Positions 2,202 to 23,341 of a stretch of 64,000 nucleotides of DNA are shown in pieces. The notes beneath the pieces were generated by a model that saw nothing but the letters and a program-made list of their open reading frames with translations, did no database searches and was not told where the DNA came from. A program made the position numbers and the translations under genes. Numbering within the stretch: position 1 is the first letter of the stretch; each line of letters opens with the position of its first letter. The stretch is taken from positions 5,973 through 69,972 of the forward strand of contig CAJORF010000140.1 in the NCBI GenBank assembly GCA_905236985.1. The letters run 5' to 3'. The DNA comes from an uncultured Bacteroidaceae bacterium. Its GTDB lineage: Bacteria > Bacteroidota > Bacteroidia > Bacteroidales > Bacteroidaceae.

Positions 2202-2208
2202 TAACAAT

Positions 2209-3684: not shown

Positions 3685-3693
3685 AACAACCGA

Positions 3694-4983
3694 ATGAAAG
3701 AGGGAGTACTAGAAAGAAAGAACCGTTCAGAAGAAATTCAGGATATCATAGATCGGATGCCCACAATATGGACACGTTATGTGACGGGCATTGTAGTGTT
3801 TTTTATATCAGTACTAATATTCTTAGGATTTCTCATAAAGTATCCCGATACGGTCATTGGCGAAGTTACCATCACCTCTAGTCAAGCACCCGTGCGTCTT
3901 CAGGCTTTAGGAACGGGACGACTACATCTGCTCCTCAGGAATCGTGATAGCGTTGATAAGGGTGACATTATCGCATATATTGATGATGGAGCAGTGCTGA
4001 AAGACATCTTGTCATTGGATTCGCTGCTCAATGGGGTAAGGTGCACAGGAAGCAAATACCCGCCATCGCTAATGCTAGGAAGTCTTAGTACGGCCTATGA
4101 TACATGGGTCGCAGCTTGGCATGAAACGAACCAGCTTCGCACAACGAAAATATATTCAAATATGCGCAAAGGACTGGATGAACAATTGCATTTAAACCAC
4201 TCCTTAGCTGAAAGTCAGCAAAGACAACTACTTTTGAGCACTGAACAGTATCGTATTTATCATATTCGTCAAGAAAAAGACAGTGTTCTTCACTTAAAAG
4301 GAGTTATCAGTGATGAAGAGATGGAAAGAAAGCAGAATACTTTCGTTTTACGAAAGCTACAGCTAATGGAACAGGAAAGCAGTCTTCTGAGCACCAAGTC
4401 AGCTATTAGTCAGAATCGTATTGAACGTGCACGTATAGATATCAGTGAGATGGATGAGGTGCGTCGTTCCCAAGACAAATTATCTATCCGTGAGTTAGAA
4501 CTACGAAGTGCTATACGTCAATGGAAAGAGAAATATCTGCTTATAGCCCCGGCTAACGGTCAAATTGAATATATGGGATTTTGGAGAGAGCATGATTATG
4601 TTCAGGCTGGACAGGTGATCTTTTCCATCCTACCGCCGCAAGGCTCTGTCTTCGGCGAGGCCTACATCACAGCCGCAGGCTTTGGAAAGGTGGAGGTCGG
4701 ACAACTGGCAAATGTGAAATTGACTAATTATCCTTACGCCGAGTTTGGTCATATAGTAGGACGTGTAGAAAGTATTTCCCGACTAGCCCATACCATTCAG
4801 ACACCAAAGGGAGTTGCAGAGACATATTTAGTTGTTATTATATTTCCCAATGGAATGATGACAAACTTCGGACAACTATTGAATGTGGGGTACGAGGCTC
4901 AAGGTCATGTGGAAATCATAACCAAGCCAAAGCGAATCATTCAAAGGCTATTTGATAATCTGAGATCAAAAAAAGAAAAATGA
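3694..4983 (+). CDS. HlyD-family membrane fusion protein (bacteriocin/type I exporter accessory protein)
   Basis: It has an N-terminal cytoplasmic tail plus one TM segment (YVTGIVVFFISVLIFLGFLI). A long coiled-coil-type middle region follows (QLHLNHSLAESQQRQLLL...ELELRSAIRQWKEKY), then a C-terminal beta-barrel segment. Its stop overlaps the ABC gene start (ATGA at 4980-4983). Confidence 0.85.
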   Translation: MKEGVLERKNRSEEIQDIIDRMPTIWTRYVTGIVVFFISVLIFLGFLIKYPDTVIGEVTITSSQAPVRLQALGTGRLHLLLRNRDSVDKGDIIAYIDDGAVLKDILSLDSLLNGVRCTGSKYPPSLMLGSLSTAYDTWVAAWHETNQLRTTKIYSNMRKGLDEQLHLNHSLAESQQRQLLLSTEQYRIYHIRQEKDSVLHLKGVISDEEMERKQNTFVLRKLQLMEQESSLLSTKSAISQNRIERARIDISEMDEVRRSQDKLSIRELELRSAIRQWKEKYLLIAPANGQIEYMGFWREHDYVQAGQVIFSILPPQGSVFGEAYITAAGFGKVEVGQLANVKLTNYPYAEFGHIVGRVESISRLAHTIQTPKGVAETYLVVIIFPNGMMTNFGQLLNVGYEAQGHVEIITKPKRIIQRLFDNLRSKKEK

Positions 4984-7279: not shown

Positions 7280-7564
7280 TTGAAAATTGTTTTCAATGGC
7301 AATGCTGAGCTCACCTACAACCGTGCCTGGCAACTCTACGAGGAATGGTACGACAAGGGAAAAGCAAAACAGGAAGCGTTCTTTGATGGTCTCGGACTGG
7401 ATGCTGATGCAGAAACCGTACTGGCTGAATATGCTCAGCACAGAGCCTGGCGCGAACAGACGGGCTTCAGTGCCACGCCGACCCTCCTTGTCAACGGCTA
7501 TCGTATGCCTTCGACGTATCAGATGGAAGATTTTGTAGATTTAATGAAAGTAGAAACCGTATAG
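7280..7564 (+). pseudogene. C-terminal remnant of a thioredoxin-fold/DsbA-like thiol-disulfide oxidoreductase domain (5'-truncated)
   Basis: Only about 94 codons are open, from a TTG with no ATG and no signal peptide or CxxC active site. The C-terminus (FSATPTLLVNGYRMPSTYQMEDF) resembles the cis-Pro loop and end of DsbA-like domains. A visible AT-rich to GC-richer composition change occurs just upstream (7173-7290). The stop is 1 nt from the next start. Confidence 0.5.
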
Positions 7565-7565
7565 T

Positions 7566-8249
7566 ATGGAATATCGATTCACTCCAGAGCAACGTTTGTT
7601 GCATAACCTCGTGCTGCATAGTAACGACGTACCCGCCCGTGGCCTTTTCGATGGGCAGATGGGCATCGTCCTTGTACTTTCCGAGTATGTCCGTGCCCGG
7701 AAGTTGCGTCCCCTGAAGACAGCCATCAACTTCCTCCTTGATCAAGTCCTTGACAATCTTTCCACCGAGATGCCTTTGGAGTTTGCCAACGGCCTGACCG
7801 GCATCGGATGGGGCGTGGAATATCTTCTACAAAACAAGTTCCAGCGCGGTCAGGGAGCAGACATCTGCGCTGCCATCGATCAGAAGCTGATGCAGCAGAA
7901 CATCCTTAGACAGACTGACCTCAGCCTCAACAAAGGCCTTGAAGGCTGGCTACACTACATCGTTGCCCACGTGCAAGGAGCCCAGAAGGACGGTCGTCAG
8001 GTCTTCGATGCAGCCTACTTGCAGAACTGCCTCGCTGTCTGTCGACACCTCCTTCAGCAGGATATATCCCCGTCGCTGAGGCTGCTATGCCAGGCCTTCG
8101 AACAGATGATGCAAGGACAACCTATCCAATACACCTTCGACCTTTCTGCCTTTGTCGCTCCGAACATCAAGCGCAACACACCGATGCTGGGCCTTCACTC
8201 TGGCATGGCCGGGCTGTTATTCACACACATCAACCAAAAACAGGCATGA
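7566..8249 (+). CDS. Short LanC-like (alpha/alpha-toroid GxxG repeat) protein lacking recognisable zinc ligands; function unknown
   Basis: Repeated motifs GLFDGQMGIVLVL, ANGLTGIGWGVEYLL, GLEGWLHYIV and LHSGMAGLLF resemble the Gly-rich helix-hairpin repeats of LanC-like cyclases. At 227 aa it is about half the usual LanC length, and I see no CxG/WCxG/CHG zinc motifs. It is translationally coupled to the glycosyltransferase (ATGA at 8246-8249). Confidence 0.45.
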   Translation: MEYRFTPEQRLLHNLVLHSNDVPARGLFDGQMGIVLVLSEYVRARKLRPLKTAINFLLDQVLDNLSTEMPLEFANGLTGIGWGVEYLLQNKFQRGQGADICAAIDQKLMQQNILRQTDLSLNKGLEGWLHYIVAHVQGAQKDGRQVFDAAYLQNCLAVCRHLLQQDISPSLRLLCQAFEQMMQGQPIQYTFDLSAFVAPNIKRNTPMLGLHSGMAGLLFTHINQKQA

Positions 8250-9475
8250 AACATATCTATATCTTAGACGAGCATCAGAGCTCGAAACAGAATGGCGTGG
8301 GTACTTACATACGCCAACTGCTGAAATGCTTCGAGGGCAGTGGGCACAATGTCAACTTGCTGTCGTTTAATGATGATGAAAAGGAACTGAAAATTGAAAC
8401 TCTTTCAACATGCACTGAATACCATCTTCCCATTTGTGGGATGAACGGATTCTTGGACAACGGAAAATTATTCCTTTCGCTATTACGTCTTTATATCGAA
8501 GACAGTAAGGATAATGTGTTCTTCATTAATCATTTTCCTTGTGACAAGTTCCTCGTTGACCTCAAACACCACTTTCCGCTTTCACGTACCATCTTTGTTA
8601 TCCACGATCAGGGATGGTGTGCACCTCTGCTTGGAGATATTGAAATGTTCCAGAAGGTACTGGCGTCAAAATATCTGCCCAAAGGTCACAAGAACGAGTG
8701 GAAACATATCAGAGACATCACGCGTAGAGAGCGGAGGATGTATAGGTTGGTTGATGATATCATCACCTTATCAGATAGTACATACAACTTGCTGTTGGAG
8801 ACCTACGGAGTTCCAGCTGGAAAGATTCATTTGATACCCAATGGACTTCAACAACCAGATGATTTGTGCTCTCAGGAAGAGAAAATACTAATTCGAAAAC
8901 GTCTTGGCATTGCCGATAATGAGGTCGTGCTGTTATACACAGGCCGCACATCGCCCTCGAAGGGTATTATTCCAATGTTGATGGCATTTGATCAGTTATG
9001 GATGGAGCATCCGAGTGTGCGTCTTGTCATCGCTGGTGAGATATTCAGGTTCAATGATTTTGCCAAGCAGACGTCCCATAGTGCCTCACATGTCACTTAT
9101 ACAGGTCTCCTGCCAAAAGAACAATTGAGCGAATGGTATCAAATTGCTGACATAGGTATTCTGCCTTCATACACTGAGCAGAGTAGTTACACGGGCATTG
9201 AGATGCTGGCATACGGAAAGCTGATTGTAACAACCGACGGACATAACCTAACGGATATGTTCAATGACAAGACGGCCATTGTTGCTCATATCGGCGAAAA
9301 ACGGGCAGAGGATTCTACCGATCTTGTCAACTCCCTTGTCGAAGCGGTGAACAAGGCATTGTTCATGAGAACAGAAGAGCGTCAACAGCTTCAGTCTCAA
9401 GCACGTCATCATTACAACCATGCTTATTCTTTCACCAGCTGGAAAGCAATATACTCCCGTCTGATCAACGGGTAG
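8246..9475 (+). CDS. GT4-family (GT-B fold) glycosyltransferase, peptide-system associated
   Basis: The start MKHIYILDEHQSSKQNGVGTYIRQLL is at the ATG at 8246. The 8087 start in the ORF track is an out-of-context extension overlapping the previous gene. The C-terminal motif PSYTEQSSYTGIEMLAYGKLIV is of the EX7E type. It lies immediately upstream of a GG-leader precursor, as in the glycosyltransferase family described for the GG-Bacteroidales peptide system (TIGR04157, recalled from memory). Confidence 0.85.
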   Translation: MKHIYILDEHQSSKQNGVGTYIRQLLKCFEGSGHNVNLLSFNDDEKELKIETLSTCTEYHLPICGMNGFLDNGKLFLSLLRLYIEDSKDNVFFINHFPCDKFLVDLKHHFPLSRTIFVIHDQGWCAPLLGDIEMFQKVLASKYLPKGHKNEWKHIRDITRRERRMYRLVDDIITLSDSTYNLLLETYGVPAGKIHLIPNGLQQPDDLCSQEEKILIRKRLGIADNEVVLLYTGRTSPSKGIIPMLMAFDQLWMEHPSVRLVIAGEIFRFNDFAKQTSHSASHVTYTGLLPKEQLSEWYQIADIGILPSYTEQSSYTGIEMLAYGKLIVTTDGHNLTDMFNDKTAIVAHIGEKRAEDSTDLVNSLVEAVNKALFMRTEERQQLQSQARHHYNHAYSFTSWKAIYSRLING

Positions 9476-9557: not shown

Positions 9558-9851
9558 ATGAAAAAAATTCAATTGCATGATGACAACATCTATCAGGCTC
9601 TTTCAATTGATGAATTAAAACAAGTTAAAGGAGGTGGCGAATCTGGCTATTGGCGATGTAATATGGGTACTTGTTCGGTAAAACAAGGGTTACAAACAAT
9701 TACTGGGAAATGTCAACTTACTATGGTTCACTCCCAAGCAGCATTTAAATGTACTTGTCAAAAAAATGGTGAGGATATATTGGTGTTGGGACAGGCAGTC
9801 AGCTGTTGGGAATACGTCGAGCAGTCTGGATATAGCGGATCTGGTGACTAA
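9558..9851 (+). CDS. Double-glycine-leader precursor peptide (bacteriocin/RiPP-like), 26-aa leader plus 71-aa Cys-rich core
   Basis: The leader MKKIQLHDDNIYQALSIDELKQVKGG matches the LSxxELxxIxGG double-glycine consensus cleaved by C39 domains. The core GESGYWRCNMGTCSVKQ...KCTCQKNG...SCWEYVEQSGYSGSGD has 6 Cys and a Ser/Gly/Tyr tail. It sits among exporter and modification genes. Confidence 0.8.
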   Translation: MKKIQLHDDNIYQALSIDELKQVKGGGESGYWRCNMGTCSVKQGLQTITGKCQLTMVHSQAAFKCTCQKNGEDILVLGQAVSCWEYVEQSGYSGSGD

Positions 9852-9931: not shown

Positions 9932-12661
9932 ATGCTTAAATGCCCGTCATTATATTATCGTTGCTCATTACTACTTCTTTTCTTTGCAATCGCATCTTCG
10001 TTACATGCAGATATCATTAGAGGTAGAATCAAAGATGCCCAAAGCACAGAAGGCGTACCATACGCAACAATTAGCTGTCTGCTCATAATAGGAAATAACG
10101 GTATGGCGGTAGTGCAAGAACATAGAGCTGACAGTTTAGGTAGCTTTACATTTCATGCTGCAAATAGTGGACAATTCGTGGTATCAATGGTTGGATACAA
10201 GAATTCAGATATCATCAGTTTCAGCGTTTTTTCTGAAAGCCGACGGGATACCATAGATGTGGGCGATATCAAACTGCAGCCCACCGAGACAATGATGCGG
10301 GCATTAGAGGTGAGCGCACGGGCACGGCGTTTCACCATGAACGGTGATACCATAGTGTTTCATCCCGAGGCGTTCCACCTGGAGGAGGGCGCACGTTTAG
10401 AGGATCTCATCAGGCAGTTGCCGGGCGTCAGCGTTGACGAAAGCGGGCTCTCTTGGAACGGACGGCCGTTACGTGTAGTCATGAACGGGGAGGAGATATT
10501 TGGAGGCAGTGCCATCGTGAAGCAGCTGCCTGTCCAAGCCGTGGAGACCATCAAGGCGTACAACAAGGCATCGGAGCTTAGCAGACATACTGGCAAAGAT
10601 GACGGCAGTGAGGACATGGTGCTGGATCTGAACATCAAACCAGGATTTCTCGACCGTTTCTATGGAGATGCAACGGCTAAATATCAGACACCTAAGCAAT
10701 ATGAGGGTGAGCTCACGGCCAACCGCCTCTCGGACACAGACCCACTGATGCTCTATAGCGAGGCCAACACAATGAACCGCATCGCCTCGGAGGGCTTTAA
10801 CTCTTGGCGGTCAGGAGAGCGGAATGAGGGCTACGGGCTGGGACAGTTCGCCGCCATAGGTTATCAGCACAACTGGGGCAGTAGGCAGGGACGACATAAC
10901 CTGCATAGTTTTGCCGACGCCACGGGCAGCATCTCACACGAGGACCATTGGGGTACTGCCTACAGTGAGACGTTAAGCTATTTTCCGAACTCTTCCAGCA
11001 ACCGCCTCTCACAACAGAATCATCAGCATACTCATCAACTCATGCCTAAGATACATGGAGGAGCACGATGGGAAATAGATACGCTGAACACTATCTATGT
11101 AGATTTTTCCACGGAGTTTGGTCGTCAGAGAAGCAACGTTAACGAACGTACATGCCAGTATGTTCTCATAGAATCACCAGACAGCATTTCAACTGAACAA
11201 CTGACTATGAATGGGGGTGCACTTTCACACTCGACTTTGGACATTGTTAATCTTCATGCCGCTGCAGGATGGACACATTATATCAAAGAAGGTTCACTGA
11301 ACATTGATACAGAATGGAATATAAGGGATAAGAAAGCCAACGGGCATGCGACCCGCGAAATTACCTATCCGACGTATATCACAGATGATTTTACGCTCAT
11401 GCAGGACAGCCGACTTGAGACGAATAGTCACAAGGGCAGCATCAAGGCCGAAGCCAAGCGATGGCTGACACCAAAGGCTCTGTTCACGGCAGACTATACC
11501 CTCTGGCTGAGCCGCCGCCATGACAACCAAGTTTTCATGACCGACGGACTGACGGATGCAGGTGAGAGCTACGATGACCTCCACCAGAGCATCACTCACA
11601 CTCTCGGGCTGAGTTCTACGCTCAATTTGCGCCCCTTCCAGCTGACACCCCGACTGAACTATATACTGAACAGAGAGAAAGAGAAATACACGCGGGGAAG
11701 TCTCGACACATTGGCACTTAGAAACTCACACCGCATAGAACCTTCATTGAGCATGAAATGGAAAATTGATGCCAACTCGGAGGTCAATTTAAATTACGGT
11801 TTTGTTACACAAGAGCCAGAACTGAAGCAAATGATGGCCTACCGTGATGCAACGAATCCGCTCTTCATCATGCAGGGCAGCCCCGATCTACGAAATATAC
11901 ACATCAACCATGGCGGTCTGCGCTACCAAATTATCATCCCGTCGCGTCAACTTCAACTCTATGTTTTTGCCGGTTTTCATCACTCTGACAACAGCCACCA
12001 GCCGCTGCTACGCTATGACTCCAATCGTTCTGCTTATATCAGCCGTCTGGAGAACGTCAAAGGATATCAGGAATTCAACCTGATGGCCAACTACGACCAA
12101 GGCTTCGGCGATGTCGTGCGTCTCCGCAATACACTCACTTTCATCCGAGGAAAGAGCTATGCCCACCTGTTGCAGACCTCGCCAGACGAGCCACTTCAGC
12201 TCAACCGACAGCTTTGTATGACCCTGAGAGATGAGGCGCGCTTGTCGTTGGACTGGAAATGGCTGAAGATAGGGACTTTTGCCAACATCAGTGCGCAGCG
12301 CATGAATAATTCGATAGCGCAGGTACAAAACACTACACTATGGAATAACAAGTTGGGCTTCGACGCAGAACTCCGCAAGGGCAAGTTCACGGTCAAGACA
12401 GAATTCTTCGACCTTATGCGCAGAGGTTACAAACTTTTAGGCATGAACTCCGATCGCTTTATCTGGAATGCCTCTGCCTCATGGCGCTGTCTCAAGGGAA
12501 AAGGCAAGTTGTCGCTCGAAGTGGATGATATCCTCAACCATGCCGACAACTTCACTTCCACTGAATCTGCTAACCAACAGGTCATGACTTGGTGCGACCA
12601 GATGCACCACTATATACGCCTCGGCTTCACTTATCATTTGGATGCAAAGGTAAAGAAATAG
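9932..12661 (+). CDS. Outer membrane beta-barrel family protein (CarboxypepD_reg-like N-domain plus plug-like region plus large barrel; PF14905-like)
   Basis: The ATG at 9932 gives the signal peptide MLKCPSLYYRCSLLLLFFAIASSLHA. IRGRIKDAQSTEGVPYATISC is a carboxypeptidase-regulatory-like start. LPGVSVDESGLSWNGRPLRVVMNGEEIF is a TonB-receptor plug-like motif. The C-terminus ends in an aromatic-rich beta-strand pattern (YIRLGFTYHL). Confidence 0.8.
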   Translation: MLKCPSLYYRCSLLLLFFAIASSLHADIIRGRIKDAQSTEGVPYATISCLLIIGNNGMAVVQEHRADSLGSFTFHAANSGQFVVSMVGYKNSDIISFSVFSESRRDTIDVGDIKLQPTETMMRALEVSARARRFTMNGDTIVFHPEAFHLEEGARLEDLIRQLPGVSVDESGLSWNGRPLRVVMNGEEIFGGSAIVKQLPVQAVETIKAYNKASELSRHTGKDDGSEDMVLDLNIKPGFLDRFYGDATAKYQTPKQYEGELTANRLSDTDPLMLYSEANTMNRIASEGFNSWRSGERNEGYGLGQFAAIGYQHNWGSRQGRHNLHSFADATGSISHEDHWGTAYSETLSYFPNSSSNRLSQQNHQHTHQLMPKIHGGARWEIDTLNTIYVDFSTEFGRQRSNVNERTCQYVLIESPDSISTEQLTMNGGALSHSTLDIVNLHAAAGWTHYIKEGSLNIDTEWNIRDKKANGHATREITYPTYITDDFTLMQDSRLETNSHKGSIKAEAKRWLTPKALFTADYTLWLSRRHDNQVFMTDGLTDAGESYDDLHQSITHTLGLSSTLNLRPFQLTPRLNYILNREKEKYTRGSLDTLALRNSHRIEPSLSMKWKIDANSEVNLNYGFVTQEPELKQMMAYRDATNPLFIMQGSPDLRNIHINHGGLRYQIIIPSRQLQLYVFAGFHHSDNSHQPLLRYDSNRSAYISRLENVKGYQEFNLMANYDQGFGDVVRLRNTLTFIRGKSYAHLLQTSPDEPLQLNRQLCMTLRDEARLSLDWKWLKIGTFANISAQRMNNSIAQVQNTTLWNNKLGFDAELRKGKFTVKTEFFDLMRRGYKLLGMNSDRFIWNASASWRCLKGKGKLSLEVDDILNHADNFTSTESANQQVMTWCDQMHHYIRLGFTYHLDAKVKK

Positions 12662-12776: not shown

Positions 12777-15437
12777 ATGACTTTAATATTACAGCATTTT
12801 GGAGTAAGCCTTAATCGCCTCCTTTCTTTCCGGGAGCAGTTAATCCTAATGTGCCTCCTCCTTCCCCTCTCGGCGAAGGGGCAGACGGATACGCTCTCGA
12901 CCAAAGAACCGGAAACGACCATGAGGGAAGTGGCGGTGAAGGCATCGAAGATACTCATGGTGCAGAACGGCGACACGCTCGTCTACAATGCCGACCAGCT
13001 GCAGCTGGCTGCCGGTGCCATGCTGGACGAGCTGATCAATGCCTTGCCTGAGGCACGAATCAGCCCTGAGGGCGTGATTTCGGTCAAAGGAGAGCCTGTC
13101 GCCGAGCTGCTTATCGAGGGCCGTGACTTCTTCCACGGCGACCCGACGATTGCGCTGAAGAACCTGCCGGCCTTCACGGTGAAGAAGGTGAAGGTCTATC
13201 GCAAGGTTCCGCGCAATGCCTATCTGACGCGAGAGGACAAGGGAAAGAAGGCTCGCGAGACGGATCCGCTGGTCATGGATGTGCGCCTGAAACCACAGTA
13301 CCAGAACGGCATCATTGCCAATGTAGAGTCGGCCAGCGGTGTGCCCACTCAGGGCGAGAGCAAGTATCTCTATCTGGAACGACTGTTCGGACTGCACTAC
13401 AACGAGCGGCGAAGCCTCTCGGGGTACGTGGGACTGAACAATGTCAACGACAAAGGCAGGCCGCAGTCTAAGGGACTGTGGAGCGACCAGACGGATGAGA
13501 TGGGCGAGCAGCGACAAGCCATAGCCGGCGTGGACTACACCTACCAAAATCCCAGCAACAGGATGAGCATCAACTCGTCAATCCGTTTCAACGATTCCAA
13601 GGATATCCAGCTGCGGGAAACCTCCGACATGAGATACCTTGCCGAAGGCGACCTGCACGGCCTCTCCACGGCACGTAACGACAACCGACGCATCGACCTG
13701 TCCTGGAGCAGTGATTTCTTCTATCCCGCCAAGGCCTTCACGGTAGAGGTGCGACCACGCGTGGGAATCTCCAAGTCAAACGGCCTGTCCACCGACCGCT
13801 CCGCCACATTCTCAGCGCAGCAGGACGGCACGCTCAGCACGACGCTGGACAGCATCTGCACTCTGGAGGCCGAAGCTTTCCGCGCCACTCCGTTTGCCGT
13901 CAACCGCCAGACGATGAAGGCTGACAGCAGGACCAAGGGCATTGACTTCGGCCTCACCGCCCGCTCGACCGTCAGGCCTGCTTCGTTCAGACAACCATTA
14001 AATGTCACACTCTCGGCCAACTATTGGTCCAACGCAAGTACCGAGGACAGGCAGAACATCATCGACTTTGCAGACGCTTCGACACTATCGCAGCACAAGC
14101 AGCAGTATCGCAACAGCCCGAATAGCCAGGCCATGATGAACCTGGATTTATACTATACCGCATGGTCATTCATTCAGGGAGAGAAGACGGGAAGAGTTGA
14201 CCTGACGTTCAGGTCGGACTTCCGCCGCGAGAACCGCGAGAACCGCCTCTACGACCTGGACGAGCTGATGGAGGAGTACGAAGGGGGCACATGGGGAGAG
14301 CTGCCCGACGAGGAGCTCCTTCAGACGGTCATGGACACGGGAAACAGCTATGAGAGACTGACGGCAGAATACAATCAGACACTGACCGTCAACGGACTGT
14401 ACGCCTTCTCAAGGAACCTCAGCGGCTCCGTGTCGCTACCGCTCGCACTGAAGAACAGGCGCTTGCGTGACGAACGGGCGGCATCGGAGGTAAATCTCAG
14501 AAGCTGCAACGTGCTGCCCTCGCCATCCGTCAGACTTCAGTTATGGCGCATCACGCTCGGCTATTCCTACAAGACATTGCTACCCGGACTGGAAGACAGG
14601 GCGGACCGCACCGACGACAGCAACCCCCTCTTCGTCAGCATAGGCAACAAGGAACTCCGCAACGGTCACGCCCACAGGCCTACGATCAGCTATTCACAGC
14701 GATTCAGCAAGGCACACGCCTCGGCGTCGTTGCGGGCAGATTGGCTGTTCATGCAGGACGCCATCAAGCGTATGTTCTACTATGATGCCAAGACAGGCGT
14801 GACCACCGCCCAGAGCCGCAACGTCAACGGCGACTGGCAGGCCAACGTCAGCGGCAGTTTCCAGAAAGACTTTGGTAAACAGCAACAATGGCAGTTCAAG
14901 GCGGATGCCGACATGAGATTTGAGAACGACAATGAGTACGACCGCAGTGCGTCGGATGGAGAGGTGAGCATATATGCCGCCAAGAGGATGTGGCTCAACG
15001 CCAAGGCGGAGCTGACCTACAACCATGCCGGATGGCTCTTCAGTCTGCACGGCAAATACATATGGCGGCATACGAGGAGCGTGCAGAACCGCTTCAGCAA
15101 CGTCGACTACAGGAACCTGCGCTGCGGCGCTGCCGTACGAACACCTGTATGGCACGGGCTGTCGCTCACCACGGACTGCTACGTGAACACTGATCGTGGC
15201 TTGGTCAACGAACAGCTGAACCGCAGCTACGTCGTCTGGAACGCCAACGCCAGATACGACCTAAACGCCCATTGGAGCTTCCAACTCGAGGGCATAGACC
15301 TGCTGCGGCAGCTCAGGTCCACCAGCATGGGCGCCAGCGCTTACGGATGGTCGGAAGTACGCCGCAACACGCGCCCCTCTTACATCCTCCTGCACGCCGT
15401 CTACCGCTTCAATCTCTTACCTAAGGAGAAGAAATGA
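12777..15437 (+). CDS. Outer membrane beta-barrel family protein, paralogous type (plug-like N-region plus barrel; PF14905-like)
   Basis: The N-terminal region is typical of this family: VAVKASKILMVQNGDTLVYNADQLQLAAGAMLDELINALPEARISPEGVISVKGEPVAELLIEGRDFF. The C-terminus is a beta-strand ending (ILLHAVYRFNL). It is visibly more GC-rich than the first barrel gene. Its stop overlaps the next gene's start (ATGA at 15434-15437). Confidence 0.8.
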   Translation: MTLILQHFGVSLNRLLSFREQLILMCLLLPLSAKGQTDTLSTKEPETTMREVAVKASKILMVQNGDTLVYNADQLQLAAGAMLDELINALPEARISPEGVISVKGEPVAELLIEGRDFFHGDPTIALKNLPAFTVKKVKVYRKVPRNAYLTREDKGKKARETDPLVMDVRLKPQYQNGIIANVESASGVPTQGESKYLYLERLFGLHYNERRSLSGYVGLNNVNDKGRPQSKGLWSDQTDEMGEQRQAIAGVDYTYQNPSNRMSINSSIRFNDSKDIQLRETSDMRYLAEGDLHGLSTARNDNRRIDLSWSSDFFYPAKAFTVEVRPRVGISKSNGLSTDRSATFSAQQDGTLSTTLDSICTLEAEAFRATPFAVNRQTMKADSRTKGIDFGLTARSTVRPASFRQPLNVTLSANYWSNASTEDRQNIIDFADASTLSQHKQQYRNSPNSQAMMNLDLYYTAWSFIQGEKTGRVDLTFRSDFRRENRENRLYDLDELMEEYEGGTWGELPDEELLQTVMDTGNSYERLTAEYNQTLTVNGLYAFSRNLSGSVSLPLALKNRRLRDERAASEVNLRSCNVLPSPSVRLQLWRITLGYSYKTLLPGLEDRADRTDDSNPLFVSIGNKELRNGHAHRPTISYSQRFSKAHASASLRADWLFMQDAIKRMFYYDAKTGVTTAQSRNVNGDWQANVSGSFQKDFGKQQQWQFKADADMRFENDNEYDRSASDGEVSIYAAKRMWLNAKAELTYNHAGWLFSLHGKYIWRHTRSVQNRFSNVDYRNLRCGAAVRTPVWHGLSLTTDCYVNTDRGLVNEQLNRSYVVWNANARYDLNAHWSFQLEGIDLLRQLRSTSMGASAYGWSEVRRNTRPSYILLHAVYRFNLLPKEKK

Positions 15438-17653
15438 CAAAACATTTTCCACATACCCATCAGCTCAACACCATGGACTGTGGACCAGCCTGTCTGCGCA
15501 TGGTTGCACAGTCGTATGGTAAGCACTATCGACTTGAAACATTGCGTGAGCGGAGTTTCATCACCCGTGAAGGGGTTAGTATGTTGGGCATTGCTGATGC
15601 AGCTGAGACAATAGGATTCCGATCGTTGGGCGTTAGGACCACAATGAAGGAACTGGTACAACAACGCCCGCTACCCTGCATCCTCCACTGGAATCAGAAC
15701 CATTTCGTGGTTCTATATGACATCAGAAAGCACTGGCGAACTGGGGCTTTGTCGTTCTACATCGCTGACCCTGCATCACAGCTGGTGCGCTACGGCGAAG
15801 AGGAGTTTACGCGCTGCTGGGCAAATACAGTGTCGGCACAGCAGGAACCCATGGGCGTAGCATTGCTGCTGACACCAACACCAGAATTTAATGTGATCGC
15901 TGATGAGCCGAAGGTATCAACGCGACGCGACCTGCTCTTCTTTGCCCGCTACCTGCTGCCTCACCGCAAGGCTTTCGTCCAGTTGATTATGGGGATGCTT
16001 GTGGGTATGGCACTACAGCTGGCAGCGCCGTTCCTGACGCAGGCGATGGTGGATCAGGGCATAGGCGGACAAAACCTTGGCTTTATTACCTTAATCCTGC
16101 TTGCACAGTTAGGTTTGTTCGTGGCACAGCTTATCGTTGGTTTCCTCCGTAGCTGGGTGACATTGCATGTCAATGCCCGAATAGATGTGGCGCTCATCTC
16201 AGACTTCCTGATGAAACTGATGCGGCTGCCACTACGCTACTTCGACACAAAGATGACGGGTGATATCATGCAGCGCATCGGAGATCACAGCCGCATCAAG
16301 AGTTTCCTGATGGGAAATTCCGTCAACATCCTTTTCTCGTTAGCCAATTTCTTCATTTTCGGTGCCATATTGGCCTACTATAACTGGCAAATCCTCTCCA
16401 TCTTTCTCATAGGAAACTCACTCTACGCGACGTGGGTACTCTCGTTCATGAAGTACCGACGTGAACTGGACATTCGGCGTTTCAACCAAAGTTCGGCAGA
16501 GCAGAGTACGGTTATTCAGCTCATTCAGGGTATGCAAGAAATCAAACTGAACAATTGCGAACGGCAGAAACGGTGGGAGTGGGAACGAATACAGGTGAAG
16601 CTTTTCCGTATCAGCGTAAAAGGGCTCACGATAGGGCAGATACAAGAGGTAGGGTCAGTCTTCTTCACACAGACGACGCATATCCTCATCTCGTTTATCG
16701 CCGCCAAAGCCGTTGTGGATGGTCAGATGACACTGGGCATGATGATGTCGCTGACGTATATCATCGGTCAAGTGTCGGCACCGATAGGACAGTTCATCGG
16801 CTTCGCCCAAAGTCTGCAGGATGCCAAGATTAGCATGGAACGTCTGAGTGAGGTGCATGAACAGCAGGATGAGGAGATGAACGCCGAAGGACGACTCCAC
16901 GAATTGCCCAATCAAGGTGACATCTCCGTGGAGGATGTCACCTTCAGTTATAGTGGTGCCGATCGTGACTACGCTCTTGACCATCTGTCGCTAACCATTC
17001 CCGAAGGAAAAGTGACAGCCATAGTGGGAGCCAGCGGAAGCGGAAAGACGACACTCGTGAAACTTCTTTTGGGGTTTTATGAGCCGCAGCGAGGACATAT
17101 ACGGGTTGGGGGCACTCCTCTAAGCTTGATTGACCCCCAAGTGTGGCGCGCCGCCACAGGAAGTGTGATGCAGGAAGGGTTCATCTTCTCTGACACCATC
17201 GCGCGGAACATCGCCGTAGCAGATGAGCATATCGATACGAAGCGGCTGCAAAAGGCGGTGAAGATAGCAAATATCAGCGACTTCATCGAAGGCTTGCCCT
17301 TAGGCTACAGCACGAAAATCGGCATGGAGGGCAACGGCGTAAGCCAGGGGCAGCGCCAACGGTTGCTCATAGCCCGTGCCGTGTATAAAGACCCGCAGTA
17401 TATCTTCTTTGACGAGGCCACCAACGCCTTAGACGCCAATAACGAACGTATCATCATGGAACAGTTACACGATTTTTACAAAGGGCGTACAGTGGTCATC
17501 GTGGCCCATCGACTCAGTACCGTCCGTGATGCCGATAACATCATTGTGCTCGAACATGGGAAGGTGATAGAACAGGGGACACATGAGCAATTGACGGCAA
17601 AGCACGGGGCATATTATACTTTAGTAAGGAATCAGCTGGAATTAGGGAGTTAA
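15434..17653 (+). CDS. Second peptidase C39 domain-containing ABC transporter
   Basis: The C39 motif is HQLNTMDCGPACLRMV with NHFVVLYDI...FYIADP. Motifs include Walker A GASGSGKTT, a variant signature VSQGQRQR, and Walker B YIFFDEATNALD. Confidence 0.95.
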   Translation: MTKHFPHTHQLNTMDCGPACLRMVAQSYGKHYRLETLRERSFITREGVSMLGIADAAETIGFRSLGVRTTMKELVQQRPLPCILHWNQNHFVVLYDIRKHWRTGALSFYIADPASQLVRYGEEEFTRCWANTVSAQQEPMGVALLLTPTPEFNVIADEPKVSTRRDLLFFARYLLPHRKAFVQLIMGMLVGMALQLAAPFLTQAMVDQGIGGQNLGFITLILLAQLGLFVAQLIVGFLRSWVTLHVNARIDVALISDFLMKLMRLPLRYFDTKMTGDIMQRIGDHSRIKSFLMGNSVNILFSLANFFIFGAILAYYNWQILSIFLIGNSLYATWVLSFMKYRRELDIRRFNQSSAEQSTVIQLIQGMQEIKLNNCERQKRWEWERIQVKLFRISVKGLTIGQIQEVGSVFFTQTTHILISFIAAKAVVDGQMTLGMMMSLTYIIGQVSAPIGQFIGFAQSLQDAKISMERLSEVHEQQDEEMNAEGRLHELPNQGDISVEDVTFSYSGADRDYALDHLSLTIPEGKVTAIVGASGSGKTTLVKLLLGFYEPQRGHIRVGGTPLSLIDPQVWRAATGSVMQEGFIFSDTIARNIAVADEHIDTKRLQKAVKIANISDFIEGLPLGYSTKIGMEGNGVSQGQRQRLLIARAVYKDPQYIFFDEATNALDANNERIIMEQLHDFYKGRTVVIVAHRLSTVRDADNIIVLEHGKVIEQGTHEQLTAKHGAYYTLVRNQLELGS

Positions 17654-17757
17654 TCTTGAAACCTGAAACTTTTGGAACAGCGAGAGCCATCAAGCTTGCT
17701 TGTTCGTCCGAGTCGTGACAAAAGTCAACGAAGTTAAACTTGAATCTTGAAACTAAA

Positions 17758-18276
17758 ATGAAGAATGAATTAAAAGGGCTGCGTGAGCACAGCGAAGAAG
17801 TGGAGATGCTGATGGGGCAGACACCCAACTGGATCTTTCGATGGGGCATCTCCATGATTGCCGTTATCATGACATCGATGCTCGCAGCCTCGTGGTTTAT
17901 CCATTGGCCTGAAACAATGGTGGTGCGAGGTACAATAGGTATAACAGGGCCTGACACGGTATGGTACATGCAAACAGAACTGACGGCTGTCGAAATACGA
18001 CAGCTGCGACAAGGCATGACGGCGCACGTCTCTCTTGATAACAAAGACGAAGAATGGGGCTACTATAATGCTGTCGTTGATAAACTACCTCAATATCCTG
18101 ATTCCATCAGGCGATTTCCCGTCATCATCAAGTTAATTTCAAACCATACTGAATCGGGGCATCAAGAAACAGAGTATATACATATAGAACGACGCACCGC
18201 CCCATGGTTACTTGATGCGACCGCTACCATATACCTTGCAGACAGAAGCTTATTTGATAGACTGATGAGGAGGTGA
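17758..18276 (+). CDS. Miniature HlyD-family membrane fusion protein lacking the coiled-coil hairpin
   Basis: The N-terminus (HSEEVEMLMGQTPNWIFRWGISMIAVIMTSMLAASWFIHWPETMVVRGTI) aligns by eye with the N-terminus of the 429-aa HlyD at 3694. The C-terminus (VEIRQLRQGMTAHVSLDN...ATATIYLADRSLFDRLMRR) aligns with that protein's C-terminal barrel (VEVGQLANVKLTN...GHVEIITKPKRIIQRLFDNL). About 250 residues in the middle are absent. The start could be the ATG at 17758 or the TTG at 17740. Confidence 0.7.
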   Translation: MKNELKGLREHSEEVEMLMGQTPNWIFRWGISMIAVIMTSMLAASWFIHWPETMVVRGTIGITGPDTVWYMQTELTAVEIRQLRQGMTAHVSLDNKDEEWGYYNAVVDKLPQYPDSIRRFPVIIKLISNHTESGHQETEYIHIERRTAPWLLDATATIYLADRSLFDRLMRR

Positions 18277-18553: not shown

Positions 18554-20596
18554 ATGAAATTTTTCAAGAAACTGCCGCTGCTCGTTGCAGCATTGAGCAT
18601 GATGTGCATATCATGCAGTAAGGATTTTCAGGGCGACATCGACGACCTGAACGACAAGTACAGCCAGATGGACCAGCGCGTCAAGAGCCTCGAGACACAG
18701 GCTGCCTCCATGAACTCACAGCTCTCACAACTCTCCGTGCTCGCGACAGCCGTGGAGAGCGGTTTCTACGTAACCGAAGTGCGCACCAGCACCGACGGCT
18801 ATGAGCTCACGCTGAGCAACGGGCACAAGTTCATCCTCCAGAACGGACCCGACAATACCATCGCCCAGGCACCCAATATCAGCATGACTGTCATAGGAGG
18901 CGTACACTACTGGACCATCAACGGTATGCTCGTCACCGACGCTTCCGGCAAGCCAGTACCCGCCACCAGCCACACGCCGATTGTGCGTTGGAACGACGTC
19001 AACAACCAATGGACGATCTCCGTTGACGGCGGCATGACCTTCATCACCCTCAACCTCTTCTCTTCCATTGTCATCAACGACGAGGCACTCCTTCAGGTCA
19101 TCAACAACTTCATCAGCCAGAACAGCACCACCATCATCAACCAGGAGGTGCTCTTCCAGATCATCTCCACCTACATCCAGCAGAACTACTCCAAGCTCTT
19201 CAACATCGACGTGATGCGCCAGGTCATCATCAACTATCTCGACCTCCACTACACCACCATCTTCAACTACGAACTCCTGCAGCAGATCTTCACCCAGTAT
19301 AACTTCGAGTATGCCTACCAGCACATCGATGCTGACATCATCACCAACATACTCATCAACTTCATCACCGAGCACAAGGAGATCTTCATCAACAACGACG
19401 TGCTCTATGAGATCATTTCCAACTACATCGAAGTCAACAAGATCGACATCTTCAACAACACGATCATCGCTGAGGTCATCAACAACTACATTGAGCAGAA
19501 CACCAACTTCATCAACATCGACCTCATCCGTCAGGTTGTCAACAACTACATCGACGAGCACCAGGACATCATCTTCAACAACGACGTCTTCATCGAGATC
19601 CTCAAGACGTATGTCCAGAACAACTACACAGTCATCTTCTCGCAGGACATCCTCCATCAGGTCATCAACCTCTACGTCACGCAGAACCGCACCACCATCT
19701 TCAACGAGACGCTCATGTGGGAGATTATCAACCAGTTCGTCGAGAACAACTACAATACCATCATCAACCAGAACATCCTCCAGGAGATCATCAATAACTA
19801 CATCACCGTTAACAAGACCACCGTCATCAACGAGGACATCCTCTACGAGGTCATCCGCAACTACTTCCAGAACAACTTCAACATCATCATCGATGAGACA
19901 CTCATCCAGCAGATCATCAACAACTACATCACGCAGCACCAGACCACGCTCATCGACATTGACATTGTGCGCAACGTGGTCAACAAGTACGTGCAGCAGA
20001 ACTACCGCGTCATCTTCAACGTTGATGTCCTCAGCCAAGTCATCACCAACTACTTCGAGACCAATCAGACTGTCATCAAGCAGTACTTCAGTGATTACAC
20101 GGGCATCATCAAGAACGTCATCGTTGACAACGAGGTATGCGTCGTGGAGCTCAACAACGGACAGACTGTTCAACTGCCCGTTTACGATGCCTACGCCAAA
20201 GTGCGCGACCGTGTGCAGAGCATCGTCGTAGTGCCCAACGTCAACGGCCACCTCACCTACCACTACGGTTACGACATGATGTACCTCACCTACATCGTCA
20301 CGCCCGCCTCCATGGCCGGTATCATTGCCGACAAGTACCAAAACGGCGAGATGACCGTGGAATTCCTGGGTATCGACGAGGATGGAAATATGTCAAACTT
20401 CAACATCGGCTACGACAACATCTCGGGCGACTCCGACGGCAAGCTGCAACTGATGACACCCAAGCTCGACTCCTACAGCTACATGGGCACGCCCAAGTAC
20501 GTGTCCATCGCGCTGCGCGTTAAGGACAACGTAGCTGGCGGCACCGACTATGTCACCACCTTCACCCCCATCGACTGGGAAGAGAGCAACTGGTAA
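18554..20596 (+). CDS. Surface lipoprotein candidate: DUF4988-like coiled-coil N-domain plus about 16 tandem 21-aa Ile/Asn-rich repeats plus a C-terminal beta-rich domain
   Basis: The signal peptide and lipobox are MKFFKKLPLLVAALSMMCISC, followed by an acidic SKDFQGDIDD. The coiled coil reads DLNDKYSQMDQRVKSLETQAASMNSQLSQL, followed by GFYVTEVRTSTDGYELTLSNGHKFILQNG. The repeat array spans roughly nt 19064-20081, with consensus IFNxdxLxqVInNYIxqNyttI. Confidence 0.85.
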   Translation: MKFFKKLPLLVAALSMMCISCSKDFQGDIDDLNDKYSQMDQRVKSLETQAASMNSQLSQLSVLATAVESGFYVTEVRTSTDGYELTLSNGHKFILQNGPDNTIAQAPNISMTVIGGVHYWTINGMLVTDASGKPVPATSHTPIVRWNDVNNQWTISVDGGMTFITLNLFSSIVINDEALLQVINNFISQNSTTIINQEVLFQIISTYIQQNYSKLFNIDVMRQVIINYLDLHYTTIFNYELLQQIFTQYNFEYAYQHIDADIITNILINFITEHKEIFINNDVLYEIISNYIEVNKIDIFNNTIIAEVINNYIEQNTNFINIDLIRQVVNNYIDEHQDIIFNNDVFIEILKTYVQNNYTVIFSQDILHQVINLYVTQNRTTIFNETLMWEIINQFVENNYNTIINQNILQEIINNYITVNKTTVINEDILYEVIRNYFQNNFNIIIDETLIQQIINNYITQHQTTLIDIDIVRNVVNKYVQQNYRVIFNVDVLSQVITNYFETNQTVIKQYFSDYTGIIKNVIVDNEVCVVELNNGQTVQLPVYDAYAKVRDRVQSIVVVPNVNGHLTYHYGYDMMYLTYIVTPASMAGIIADKYQNGEMTVEFLGIDEDGNMSNFNIGYDNISGDSDGKLQLMTPKLDSYSYMGTPKYVSIALRVKDNVAGGTDYVTTFTPIDWEESNW

Positions 20597-20650: not shown

Positions 20651-23341
20651 ATGAGAAAACTACATCATATACTCATCGTGCTGACGGCGTCTGTCATCTC
20701 ATCCGCGCTGCTCAATTCATGCGGCAAGGATTTCCAGGATGACATTGACAAGCTTAACCAACAGCACCAAAGCATTGAGCAGCGCGTGAACACCCTCGAG
20801 ACCAAGGCCACGACGCTCAATACACAGCTTGAGCAACTCGCCAAGCTCTCCACAGCCGTAGAAAACGGATTTTACATCACCTCCGTAGCCACCACAGCCG
20901 AAGGCTATGAGCTCACACTCAGCAACGGACGTAAGATCTCCCTCTACAACGGCACCGGCAACACCCTCACCAGCACACCCCTCATCAGCATGACGCAGGT
21001 CAGCGGACTCTACTACTGGTCGCTCAACGGGATGCTGCTCACCGATGCTTCAGGCAACCCCATTCGCACCACCACCGTCACACCCGTCGTGCGCTACGAC
21101 TACGAGAACCTGAAGTGGATCGTCTCCCTCGACGGCGGCACCACCTTCCAGGATGTCAACGCCCTCGTGTCCGTGGTCATCAACGACACCGTGCTCCTCG
21201 AAATCATCAACAACTACGTCCGTGAGAACCGCACCACGCTCTTCAACCAGCAGATGCTCTACCAGATCATCTCCACATACATCCAGCGCAACTACACAGA
21301 GCTGTTCAACGTGGAGTTGCTCGACCAGGTTGTGGCCACCTATATCCGCGAGCACTACGCACGTCTGTTCAACTACGAACTGCTTGAGAAGATCTTCACC
21401 CAGTACGACTTCGAGTACTACACCAGCCAGATTGATGTCACACGACTCTCCAACCTCATCATCACCTTCATGCAGGAGCACCAGGAAATCTTCACCGACA
21501 ACGAAGTGCTCTTTGAGATCGTCTCCAACTACATTGAGGTCAACAAGACAACCATCTTCACCACCGAGATGCTCCTGGAAGTCATCAACAACTTCATCGA
21601 CAACCACTCCGACTACATCAACAAGGAGCTCCTCACACAGGTCATCGGCAACTACATCGACCAGAACCGTGAGGTCGTCTTCAACACGGAGGTCGTCCGA
21701 CAAATGATGGCCGAGTACGTCCGACGCTACTACACCCAGATCTTCAGCCAGGATATCCTCGTGCAAATGCTCAACTACTACGTCTCCCGGGACCACAACA
21801 CCATCTTCAACGAGACGCTCATACGCGACATCATCAACGAGTACGTCGTCAACAACCACACAAGCATCTTCAGCGAAGACATCCTTCGGCTCATCGTGCG
21901 CACATACATCGAGGAGAACGGCTCAACCATCATCAACCGTGACGTGCTCGTGGAAGTCATCGCCAACTACTTCCAGCGCAACTACGACCTCTTCATCGAC
22001 CGCACCGTCATCGAGCGCACCATCAACGACTATGTTGAGCGCCACCACGACACCCTCATCAGCACCGACATCATCGAATCTGTCATCAACCGCTTCCTGC
22101 AGGAGTACTACACCGAGGTCTTCGACAAGGACCTGATCACGAAGATTGTCAACAACTACTTCGAAGTCAACAGGCAAACGCTCTACGAGATCATCAAGAA
22201 GAACGCTGACCCCATCCGCGAGGTCAACATCAACGAGGACATCTGCACCATCATCCTGCGCGACGGTCAGGCCATACAGTTGCCCATCTACGATGCCCAC
22301 GCCAGGCTGCGTGACCGCGTTCAGAGCCTCGTCATCATGCCCAATGCCAGCGGACGGCTTACCGTCGTCGTTGACGAGGACAATCCCGAAGGCGAGCTCA
22401 CTTTGAACTATCTGGTGGCACCAACATTCATGGCCGAGGTCATTGCCAACAAGAGTTATAACAACGAAATATCCCTGAGCCTCCTGCTCGTGGACAAAGA
22501 GGGCAACATCAGCAACATCGACGTCTCCGAAGTATCGGCAGATGCGTCAGGTGTGCTCACGCTCAAGACCCACCTCCCCGTAGCTGACTACCTCAATTAT
22601 CATTCATGGGACTCAGACATCAACTATGATGACCTGAAGTGGACTATTGCCCTGCACGTACAGGAGAACAAGATCGGTGCCACCGACATCATGACCGAGT
22701 TTACGCCTGTGAACGTCTCCGAGTTCGACGAGCGCATCACACAGGAGATTCCCGAGGAATACCTCAGAAGGATGAGACCCTACATGCCCATCTATTCCGG
22801 CAACAGGCCACCGAGCCTCGAAGGGACCTACTGTATGCATATCACAACATTAGTATATGACTCCACGCCCAATGGATTCCAGCCAGGAAGACAATTCCTC
22901 GACTACATCGCAGATTTCACTCATCAAGACATGAAGAAAAACGTCGTTCTCTTCAGACAGGAAGAACGTAACAGCGCTGGAGTATATACGACATCTGAAT
23001 GGACTGAAGCCAAAGTTCTCGGGAGAAACGACAATTTCACGATATTCATTATTGTCAATACAGTAGAAAGTGACGGAGTAACAACAGCAAAACTGGCAAC
23101 ACTGCTTTCCGGAACGATGAGTTCGGGCGGAATCAACAACTTCTATCAAGGCTTCGTCCTGCTGGATAAGCACGACCCTAACAACAAAGTGATGCCTGTT
23201 GGAGAATTCCGCATCTTTAACGACGCAGATGGATGGAGTGAATCGACAACATGGCTAGTACGTCAAATGGTGTCTGACGCCATGGAGGTGAAAGGAATGC
23301 CCTCCTTCGATCTGCCGTGGGCTACTGCTGCCAAGCGCTGA
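20651..23341 (+). CDS. Paralogous lipoprotein with the same N-domain and 21-aa repeat array (about nt 21170-22200) plus an extra C-terminal domain of about 210 aa
   Basis: The lipobox is LLNSC followed by GKDFQDDIDK. It is collinear with the upstream paralog through the repeat array and the downstream VQLPIYDAHARLRDRVQS segment. The unique C-terminal extension begins at EFDERITQEIPEEYL. Confidence 0.85.
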   Translation: MRKLHHILIVLTASVISSALLNSCGKDFQDDIDKLNQQHQSIEQRVNTLETKATTLNTQLEQLAKLSTAVENGFYITSVATTAEGYELTLSNGRKISLYNGTGNTLTSTPLISMTQVSGLYYWSLNGMLLTDASGNPIRTTTVTPVVRYDYENLKWIVSLDGGTTFQDVNALVSVVINDTVLLEIINNYVRENRTTLFNQQMLYQIISTYIQRNYTELFNVELLDQVVATYIREHYARLFNYELLEKIFTQYDFEYYTSQIDVTRLSNLIITFMQEHQEIFTDNEVLFEIVSNYIEVNKTTIFTTEMLLEVINNFIDNHSDYINKELLTQVIGNYIDQNREVVFNTEVVRQMMAEYVRRYYTQIFSQDILVQMLNYYVSRDHNTIFNETLIRDIINEYVVNNHTSIFSEDILRLIVRTYIEENGSTIINRDVLVEVIANYFQRNYDLFIDRTVIERTINDYVERHHDTLISTDIIESVINRFLQEYYTEVFDKDLITKIVNNYFEVNRQTLYEIIKKNADPIREVNINEDICTIILRDGQAIQLPIYDAHARLRDRVQSLVIMPNASGRLTVVVDEDNPEGELTLNYLVAPTFMAEVIANKSYNNEISLSLLLVDKEGNISNIDVSEVSADASGVLTLKTHLPVADYLNYHSWDSDINYDDLKWTIALHVQENKIGATDIMTEFTPVNVSEFDERITQEIPEEYLRRMRPYMPIYSGNRPPSLEGTYCMHITTLVYDSTPNGFQPGRQFLDYIADFTHQDMKKNVVLFRQEERNSAGVYTTSEWTEAKVLGRNDNFTIFIIVNTVESDGVTTAKLATLLSGTMSSGGINNFYQGFVLLDKHDPNNKVMPVGEFRIFNDADGWSESTTWLVRQMVSDAMEVKGMPSFDLPWATAAKR

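Follow-up and report, generated by a model that had tools for sequence, protein, structure and literature searches.

A hairpin-free HlyD-family mini-adaptor and a predicted plugged outer-membrane barrel accompany a peptidase-containing ABC transporter in a Bacteroidaceae peptide locus

In the CvaB-CvaA-TolC and MchF-MchE-TolC exporters, an ABC transporter with a C39 peptidase domain cleaves the double-glycine leader of the peptide, and the gene for the membrane-fusion adaptor lies next to the transporter gene. Here, we analyzed a 64,000-nucleotide stretch of DNA from an uncultured Bacteroidaceae bacterium (contig CAJORF010000140.1; the whole stretch is hereafter called the window), in which three consecutive genes encode an outer-membrane barrel (barrel 2), a peptidase-containing ABC transporter (PCAT2), and a small membrane-fusion protein of 172 amino acids (aa), which we term the mini-adaptor. 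The locus resembles the two exporters in its leader-cleaving transporter and adjacent adaptor gene, and it differs in that its adaptor is hairpin-free and the product of its outer-membrane gene, which is probably co-transcribed, is predicted to be a plugged barrel with no alpha-helical tunnel. The mini-adaptor is homologous to HlyD/CvaA-type adaptors in the cytoplasmic segment at its N terminus, in its one membrane anchor, and in the beta-barrel domain at its C terminus, and its gene likewise stands directly 3' of a C39-ABC gene. Unlike them, it lacks the lipoyl/hairpin part of ~250 residues and falls below the Pfam and NCBIfam thresholds. Without a hairpin, it would therefore be unable to dock onto a TolC-type duct in the known way.

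Among described adaptors, BesA of Borrelia burgdorferi (PDB 4KKS-4KKU) also has no alpha-hairpin (PMC3807786), and it is found among the fold matches of the mini-adaptor. BesA nevertheless has lipoyl, beta-barrel, and membrane-proximal domains and works with a resistance-nodulation-division (RND) pump and a TolC-like duct (PMC3807786, PMC8277102), whereas the mini-adaptor keeps only the anchor and the beta-barrel and is paired with a PCAT. At the outer membrane, Myxococcus xanthus requires Oar, a TonB-dependent transporter, to secrete PopC, and Oar is implicated in the outward transport of a periplasmic intermediate (PMC6434023). Barrel 2 is likewise predicted to be a plugged TonB-type barrel, and the Oar-like CarboxypepD_reg domain occurs in its paralog, barrel 1, and in most relatives. 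However, the cargo of Oar is a protease of the 50-kDa class and not a PCAT-exported peptide, barrel 2 has no N-terminal CarboxypepD_reg domain, its sequence shows no detectable similarity to those of canonical TonB-dependent transporters, and its role in this locus is a predicted one.

Barrels of this kind have been noticed in peptide clusters before. Makarova et al. 2022 described a PF14905/SusC-like family at graspetide loci, mostly in Bacteroidetes, and predicted a role in export (PMC8939145). A 2023 survey of Bacteroidales listed biosynthetic gene clusters BGC6-9 as containing a PCAT and an outer-membrane protein with "no MFP identified" (MFP, membrane fusion protein), and asked if their mechanism is distinct (PMC10352776). 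The barrels at those loci of RiPPs (peptides made on the ribosome and modified after translation) are the same kind of protein in PCAT clusters, but a beta-barrel-only adaptor is not described there, and our limited literature search found no description of such an adaptor class. A previous reading of this DNA, made from sequence only (the sequence-only reading), had called the architecture undescribed. This holds for the adaptor class, which appears to be new, but not for the idea of PF14905 barrels in peptide export, which had already been voiced (PMC8939145). For the adaptor missed in Bacteroidales clusters, the mini-adaptor is a concrete and widespread candidate (at least 60 sequence clusters), and for the outer-membrane component the candidate is the plugged barrel that recurs in such loci.

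Between 9.5 and 18.3 kb, the plus-strand gene order is a 97-aa peptide, barrel 1, barrel 2, a 739-aa ABC protein, and a small open reading frame (ORF). The ORFs of barrel 2, PCAT2, and the mini-adaptor were all found where the sequence-only reading had placed them. Coordinates in the window are positions in the 64,000-nucleotide stretch, on the plus strand, and the features of the locus are as follows:

9558-9851, plus strand: probable substrate, a precursor of 97 aa whose double-glycine leader (…ELKQVKGG before G) is seen in the translation
9932-12661, plus strand: outer-membrane barrel 1, ~909 aa from ATG (ORF from TTG 9869), a PF14905 barrel
12777-15437, plus strand: outer-membrane barrel 2, 886 aa, TonB-dependent-transporter-like by AlphaFold2 (AF2) model and fold matches
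15434-17653, plus strand: PCAT2, 739 aa, with C39 peptidase, six-helix ABC membrane domain, and nucleotide-binding domain by Pfam
17654-17757, plus strand: spacer between PCAT2 and the mini-adaptor gene, a ~108-bp insertion by ortholog alignment
17758-18276, plus strand: mini membrane-fusion protein, 172 aa, by orthologs, AF2 model, and profile matches

The barrel 2 stop codon TGA (15435-15437) shares bases with the PCAT2 start codon ATG (15434-15436), and the ATGA overlap reported at 15434-15437 is therefore confirmed. Alignment with two related loci, L002 and L003, indicates that the 104-nt gap between PCAT2 and the mini-adaptor gene corresponds to an insertion of ~108 bp relative to the orthologs, whose two genes overlap by ATGA. 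This insertion contains repeated CTTGAAAC motifs. A promoter and terminator scan of the locus was uninformative, as it used the sigma-70 consensus, which is ill-suited to Bacteroidota.

The mini-adaptor ORF can be read from a TTG codon (17740-18276). Since the orthologs all begin with MKNELKGL, its true start is the ATG at 17758, which gives 172 aa. In the AF2 model, a cytoplasmic helix that carries the SEEVEMLMGQTPNWIFRWG motif is followed by a lone transmembrane helix and then by a beta-barrel domain of six strands; helices are predicted at residues 3-19 and 24-47. The SEEVEMLMGQTPNWIFRWG motif at the N terminus is nearly invariant among the eight orthologs, which are 172-175 aa in length, are identical to the mini-adaptor down to 49%, and are free of frameshifts; the short length, whose conservation the sequence-only reading had left to be surveyed, is kept down to 22-49% identity. 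The ratio of nonsynonymous to synonymous substitution rates (dN/dS) is 0.14 against a 76%-identical ortholog, and the gene is under purifying selection.

Pairwise comparison of the mini-adaptor with the 429-aa HlyD encoded elsewhere in the window aligned the N-terminal 73 aa (E = 6e-4) and gave no significant match for the C-terminal part. Comparison by profiles gave a much clearer result. Using hhalign, residues 4-66 were matched to the HlyD N-terminal block with 99.1% probability, and the profile of the short family matched the 429-aa HlyD at 8e-31. Moreover, in more than 20 full-length HlyDs, residues 1-62 of the mini-adaptor correspond to residues 1-62 and residues ~60-170 to residues ~310-420, in colinear order. 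In comparison with its 425-460-aa relatives, the mini-adaptor thus lacks the ~250 residues that hold the lipoyl and coiled-coil parts. A loss of this size had been proposed from an alignment by eye with the 429-aa HlyD, and the resemblance to that HlyD is weak in pairwise comparison and solid by profiles.

No lipoyl domain was detected in the mini-adaptor, as zero residues separate the N- and C-terminal blocks and the AF2 model shows a single barrel; nor was a coiled-coil hairpin, the only periplasmic helices of the model being at residues 77-81 and 164-171. Foldseek matched the model to the beta-barrel domains of EmrA, MacA, ZneB, Spr0693, BesA, and HlyD in the PDB. The protein itself has no match in Pfam or NCBIfam even at E = 10 (including HlyD_3, HlyD_D23, and TIGR01843), and a sequence-profile search of the PDB returned chance matches only. 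HlyD_3 weakly matches 6 of 23 short relatives, and one relative of 185 aa is named an HlyD-family adaptor by the Prokaryotic Genome Annotation Pipeline (PGAP). Collectively, the profile alignments and the model identify the 172-aa protein as a member of the HlyD adaptor family that has lost both the lipoyl domain and the coiled-coil hairpin. A split adaptor, with the hairpin supplied by a neighboring gene, was considered and rejected, as the ORFs 3' of the mini-adaptor gene are short, lack conservation from one locus to the next, and do not resemble coiled coils.

A profile search of the full database identified 1363 relatives of the mini-adaptor, and the short relatives of 150-199 aa form at least 60 protein clusters. 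We counted insert sizes among the listed relatives that carry both the N-terminal and the C-terminal block, with the following outcome:

Insert of 0 residues: proteins of 150-226 aa (63 proteins of 150-199 aa)
Insert of about 50-95 residues: proteins of 227-262 aa
Insert of about 143-154 residues: proteins of 314-332 aa
Insert of about 198 residues: a protein length of 366 aa
Insert of about 246-260 residues: proteins of 425-464 aa

Insert sizes among these relatives are discrete, and the mini-adaptor is the extreme of a graded series (0, ~75, ~150, and ~250 residues). Adaptors of intermediate length are also found beside PCATs, namely one of 314 aa in Parabacteroides (L024, 10001-10945) and one of 243 aa in L033 (13406-14137).

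Barrel 2 is organized as a signal peptide, a TonB-box-like segment (REVAVKAS, residues ~49-57), a plug (~58-175), and a large beta-barrel. The AF2 model, built from a 59-sequence alignment (predicted local distance difference test [pLDDT] 85.3, predicted template modeling score [pTM] 0.78), has a disordered N terminus, a mixed alpha/beta plug-like region at residues ~58-175, and thereafter an all-beta part with more than 22 strand elements. The top 50 Foldseek matches in the PDB are all TonB-dependent transporters (PfeA, Cir, FhuA, FecA, SusC, and others), with E-values down to 3e-16, although the TM-scores are just 0.3-0.45 and the barrel geometry may differ. A conserved motif, L-EV-V-A-SK, precedes the plug and is TonB-box-like. 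In the barrel profile, "kevvVkA" aligns with the SusC-type TonB box "DEVVVTG" of the 6ytc N-terminal domain, and such a SusC-type N-terminal domain is the sole match of the profile when the PDB is searched by sequence. As the AF2 model contains no long helices and PF02321 does not match, a TolC-like periplasmic tunnel was not detected, in agreement with what had been read from the sequence. Barrel 2 is thus best described, on the strength of its model, as a divergent and plugged TonB-dependent-transporter-like protein, and, as modeled, it is certainly not a TolC-type duct.

The family assignment of barrel 2 is less direct. Barrel 1 matches PF14905 at 3.8e-18, has an N-terminal CarboxypepD_reg-like domain (weak PF13715/PF13620 matches), and is paralogous to barrel 2 (BLASTP, 6e-16). 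Barrel 2 itself has no match in current Pfam or NCBIfam even at E = 10, including PF00593, PF07715, and PF14905, whereas the precomputed record of the 886-aa protein does list PF14905. It has 165 relatives, many of them with PF14905, with or without CarboxypepD_reg domains, and some relatives match PF00593. The description of the barrel as PF14905-like therefore stands by way of the precomputed record, the paralog, and the relatives, and not by a direct family match.

PCAT2 matches PF03412 (4e-31), PF00664 (1.7e-26), and PF00005 (5.9e-29), all above the cut-offs, and its TIGR01193 score of 401 bits is under the 524-bit cut-off. Its translation contains the C39-site residues Q10, C16, and H90 and the Walker A motif GASGSGKTT. 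The candidate substrate, the 97-aa peptide, has a core of 71 aa with six Cys residues and a leader with weak matches to NF033456 and TIGR01847, and a related 101-aa peptide is present in L001. From its sequence, PCAT2 is an intact and ordinary PCAT with a plausible substrate. It is 42% identical to PCAT1, the first C39-ABC transporter of the window. In a rough tree, the PCATs with adaptors of 171-314 aa cluster together, apart from those with 431-aa HlyDs, and PCAT1 falls outside the short-adaptor group.

Neighborhoods were sampled by 12 context look-ups and by a single metagenome scan, for which the barrel alignment was used. Every short adaptor with a readable neighborhood lies directly downstream of a C39-ABC gene. 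In L015/L016, the PCAT gene directly precedes the short adaptor, and the readable neighborhood is limited by the length of the contig. One or more barrels, a PCAT, and a mini-adaptor share one operon in seven independent loci (the window, L001, L002, L018/L019, L006/L007, L023, and L087), so that the synteny suggested by the sequence-only reading does recur, and stop/start overlaps of 4 bp are frequent in these loci. The barrel 1 ortholog of L001 directly precedes the PCAT. Compact operons of the L023 type consist of a peptide, a radical-SAM enzyme, a barrel, a PCAT, and a mini-adaptor. L018 (12534-15811 and 21140-22219) contains a 47%-identical barrel; in this locus, a DDE transposase interrupts the PCAT gene, the 3' end of which is inverted ~7 kb away together with a 175-aa mini-adaptor.

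At none of these loci does a barrel-linked PCAT have an adaptor of 400 aa or more; its adaptor is either short, tiny, or missing altogether. Seven loci have adaptors of 171-188 aa, the one in L033 measures 243 aa, and no adaptor accompanies the barrel-linked PCATs of L020/L021 and L041. We also observed single-pass proteins of ~130 aa directly after barrel-linked PCATs in L053 (14758-15156) and L062 (7894-8355, with a probable start at an internal Met near 7960), which are 37% identical to each other and may be relatives of the mini-adaptor that have been reduced further. Their assignment as mini-adaptors was rejected as too weak, since they have only an "ILRYG" motif and a membrane helix in common with it. 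A scan with a narrower alignment of the short family returned 7 loci, six of which encode full-length HlyDs of other Bacteroidota classes. These six HlyDs (431-453 aa) lie beside PCATs, with no barrel or TolC gene within 10 kb.

The metagenome scan revealed 80 loci with relatives of the barrel (25-72% identity). Peptide-cluster neighbors were present in 21 of the 80, two of which also contain BlaI/BlaR1 genes; BlaI/BlaR1 (M56)-like neighbors were present in 10; and 47 had none of the recurrent neighbor families. Within the 21 peptide-cluster loci, the overlapping neighbor classes were radical SAM (13), ABC (10), glycosyltransferase families GT2 (8) and GT4 (5), and VKOR-thioredoxin (5). After dereplication, roughly half of the barrel relatives for which the context suffices are in peptide-cluster neighborhoods. 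A dedicated clade of PCAT-linked barrels was looked for and rejected, as the peptide-cluster contexts are scattered across the family in a rough tree. In one barrel subgroup (L067, L086, L088, L091, L095, L102, L104, and others), genes for a BlaI-like repressor and a BlaR1 (M56) peptidase adjoin the barrel gene, which suggests that part of the family may have a signaling role. Barrels are genuinely and repeatedly linked to peptide clusters. The family is not confined to PCAT loci, however, and the three genes need not occur together.

As the reading that fits best, we tentatively propose that these genes make up the transport arm of a Bacteroidales cluster for a double-glycine-leader peptide (bacteriocin or RiPP-like) and that they would provide a two-step route independent of TolC. 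PCAT2 would remove the leader and deliver the peptide to the periplasm, with the mini-adaptor serving as an accessory collar of the exporter at the inner membrane and forming no bridge to the outer membrane. The six Cys residues of the peptide could form disulfides in the periplasm, and a VKOR-thioredoxin gene, present in related loci and as a remnant in the window, fits periplasmic disulfide formation. The outer-membrane step would then be separate and would proceed without TolC, through a plugged barrel that is probably opened by TonB; the precedent is the need for Oar in PopC secretion (PMC6434023). We consider it possible, if doubtful, by analogy with Oar, that the peptide exits through this TonB-box-bearing, plugged PF14905-type barrel and that the adaptor has been cut down to a collar, or lost, since no duct is recruited. 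If the barrel does export, a dominant gut phylum would have a new way of secreting bacteriocins or RiPPs, and the barrel would be the second outward TonB-dependent transporter after Oar.

Several observations weigh against this two-step route. A PCAT-mini pair without a barrel within 10 kb occurs at the P0016 locus, in L022, and in L017. Adaptor length does vary suggestively with the presence of a barrel, but phylogeny and the sampling of loci confound this association. Among the 80 barrel relatives, 47 have no peptide-cluster neighbors and 10 lie beside BlaI/BlaR1-like genes, and a 72%-identical ortholog of barrel 2 in L025 (5925-8588) has no PCAT or mini-adaptor within 9.8 kb. The mini-adaptor model was built from only 8 sequences and has a pLDDT of 74, and the fold matches that it gives are moderate (E ~5e-4, TM ~0.4). 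In addition, to our knowledge, TonB-dependent transporters import in nearly all studied cases.

The main rival to two-step export is that PCAT2 and the mini-adaptor export the peptide while the barrel is an ordinary TonB-dependent importer, with the peptide crossing the outer membrane by another exit. The barrel would take the mature peptide up again as a metal carrier, a nutrient, or a signal that has to reach a periplasmic or inner-membrane sensor, or would have a role in immunity or sensing. This is a serious possibility, although we do not think it probable. The TonB-dependent-transporter fold and the conserved TonB-box-like motif of barrel 2 are what an importer would have, the core of the peptide is Cys-rich, the family extends well beyond PCAT loci and includes the BlaI/BlaR1-linked members that point to signaling, and the L025 ortholog stands alone. 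Siderophore and methanobactin (MbnT) clusters likewise pair a TonB-dependent receptor with an exporter. On the other hand, the compact operons of peptide, radical-SAM enzyme, barrel, PCAT, and mini-adaptor contain no inner-membrane importer or sensor, an uptake receptor for an antibacterial peptide would sensitize its producer, and the hairpin-free adaptors at barrel-linked PCATs would be left unexplained. If the barrel does import, the peptides are probably signals or metal carriers and not toxins. Either answer bears on competition among gut Bacteroidales and on peptide production in other hosts.

We regard as improbable the view that the barrel is an unrelated neighbor and that only PCAT2 and the mini-adaptor form a functional pair. 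The heterogeneous contexts of the family, the solitary ortholog in L025, and the patchy presence of barrels in the short-adaptor PCAT clade would all be expected from it. Nevertheless, the 4-bp stop/start overlap is maintained in three loci at 51-100% mini-adaptor identity, barrels are still found inside peptide operons at just 26-28% barrel identity, and in 13 loci a radical-SAM gene is the one directly upstream of the barrel.

Less probable still is a single envelope-spanning, TolC-independent tripartite machine in which the barrel, PCAT2, and the mini-adaptor form a continuous path, as the sequence-only reading had put forward. The translational coupling of the barrel and PCAT genes by ATGA and the recurrent order barrel, PCAT, mini-adaptor are consistent with such a machine, the loss of the hairpin coincides with an outer-membrane partner that is not TolC, and BesA is a hairpin-free adaptor that still works in a pump (PMC3807786). 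However, judging from the AF2 models of the mini-adaptor and the barrel, nothing would bridge the periplasm. The hairpins of canonical adaptors are of the order of 100 Å, and the coiled coil of EmrA measures 127 Å (PMC4158417). A continuous duct is unlikely because the periplasmic part of the mini-adaptor is modeled as one beta-barrel domain of ~110 residues, the barrel model has no periplasmic domain except for the disordered TonB-box segment, and canonical adaptors need hairpins of ~100 Å. BesA, moreover, retains lipoyl and membrane-proximal domains and a TolC-type duct as partner, and both PCAT-mini pairs without barrels and barrel-PCAT pairs without adaptors exist. The remaining alternative, that the mini-adaptor is the decayed remnant of a full-length adaptor gene, could draw on its lack of a Pfam/NCBIfam match and on the 108-bp insertion just upstream, but it is effectively refuted by lengths kept at 172-175 aa in orthologs (none of them full-length, all without frameshifts) and, across at least 60 clusters, at 150-199 aa, by the dN/dS of 0.14, by N- and C-terminal blocks that are intact and colinear, and by an AF2 model that folds with confidence into a barrel.

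Further features of the window lie upstream of the peptide gene:

2137-3684, plus strand: TolC-like protein by PF02321
3694-4983, plus strand: full-length HlyD, 429 aa, by Pfam/NCBIfam
4980-7172, plus strand: PCAT1, the first C39-ABC transporter, by Pfam/NCBIfam
7566-8249, plus strand: LanC-like protein by Pfam, a probable tailoring gene
8246-9475, plus strand: GT4 glycosyltransferase by Pfam, a probable tailoring gene

The first three form the canonical TolC/HlyD/ABC set (2137-7172) that had been noted 8 kb upstream, and Pfam and NCBIfam bear out this assignment. The LanC-like gene (a weak PF05147 match) and the GT4 gene share an ATGA, and in L017 (5021-6880) they form one fused protein of 619 aa. 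This pair hints that the peptide is glycosylated or otherwise tailored without a LanB or LanM partner.

Of a VKOR-thioredoxin fusion, the window retains just a C-terminal remnant, the 94-aa ORF at 7280-7564. L002 has the intact fusion (3-1097), upstream of its barrel, and the fusion adjoins barrel relatives in 5 loci. As it is a remnant here and intact elsewhere, the window locus looks mosaic. The L025 contig, in addition to its barrel 2 ortholog, carries an ortholog of an unannotated ORF at 117-2201 of the window. Downstream of the mini-adaptor gene, two adjacent DUF4988 lipoprotein-like genes (18554-20596 and 20651-23341) contain long internal runs of repeats of ~20 residues, and in this gene pair the GC skew is strongly negative and the antisense strand holds long but spurious ORFs. 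Finally, 35072-43114 is a single ORF of 2680 aa.

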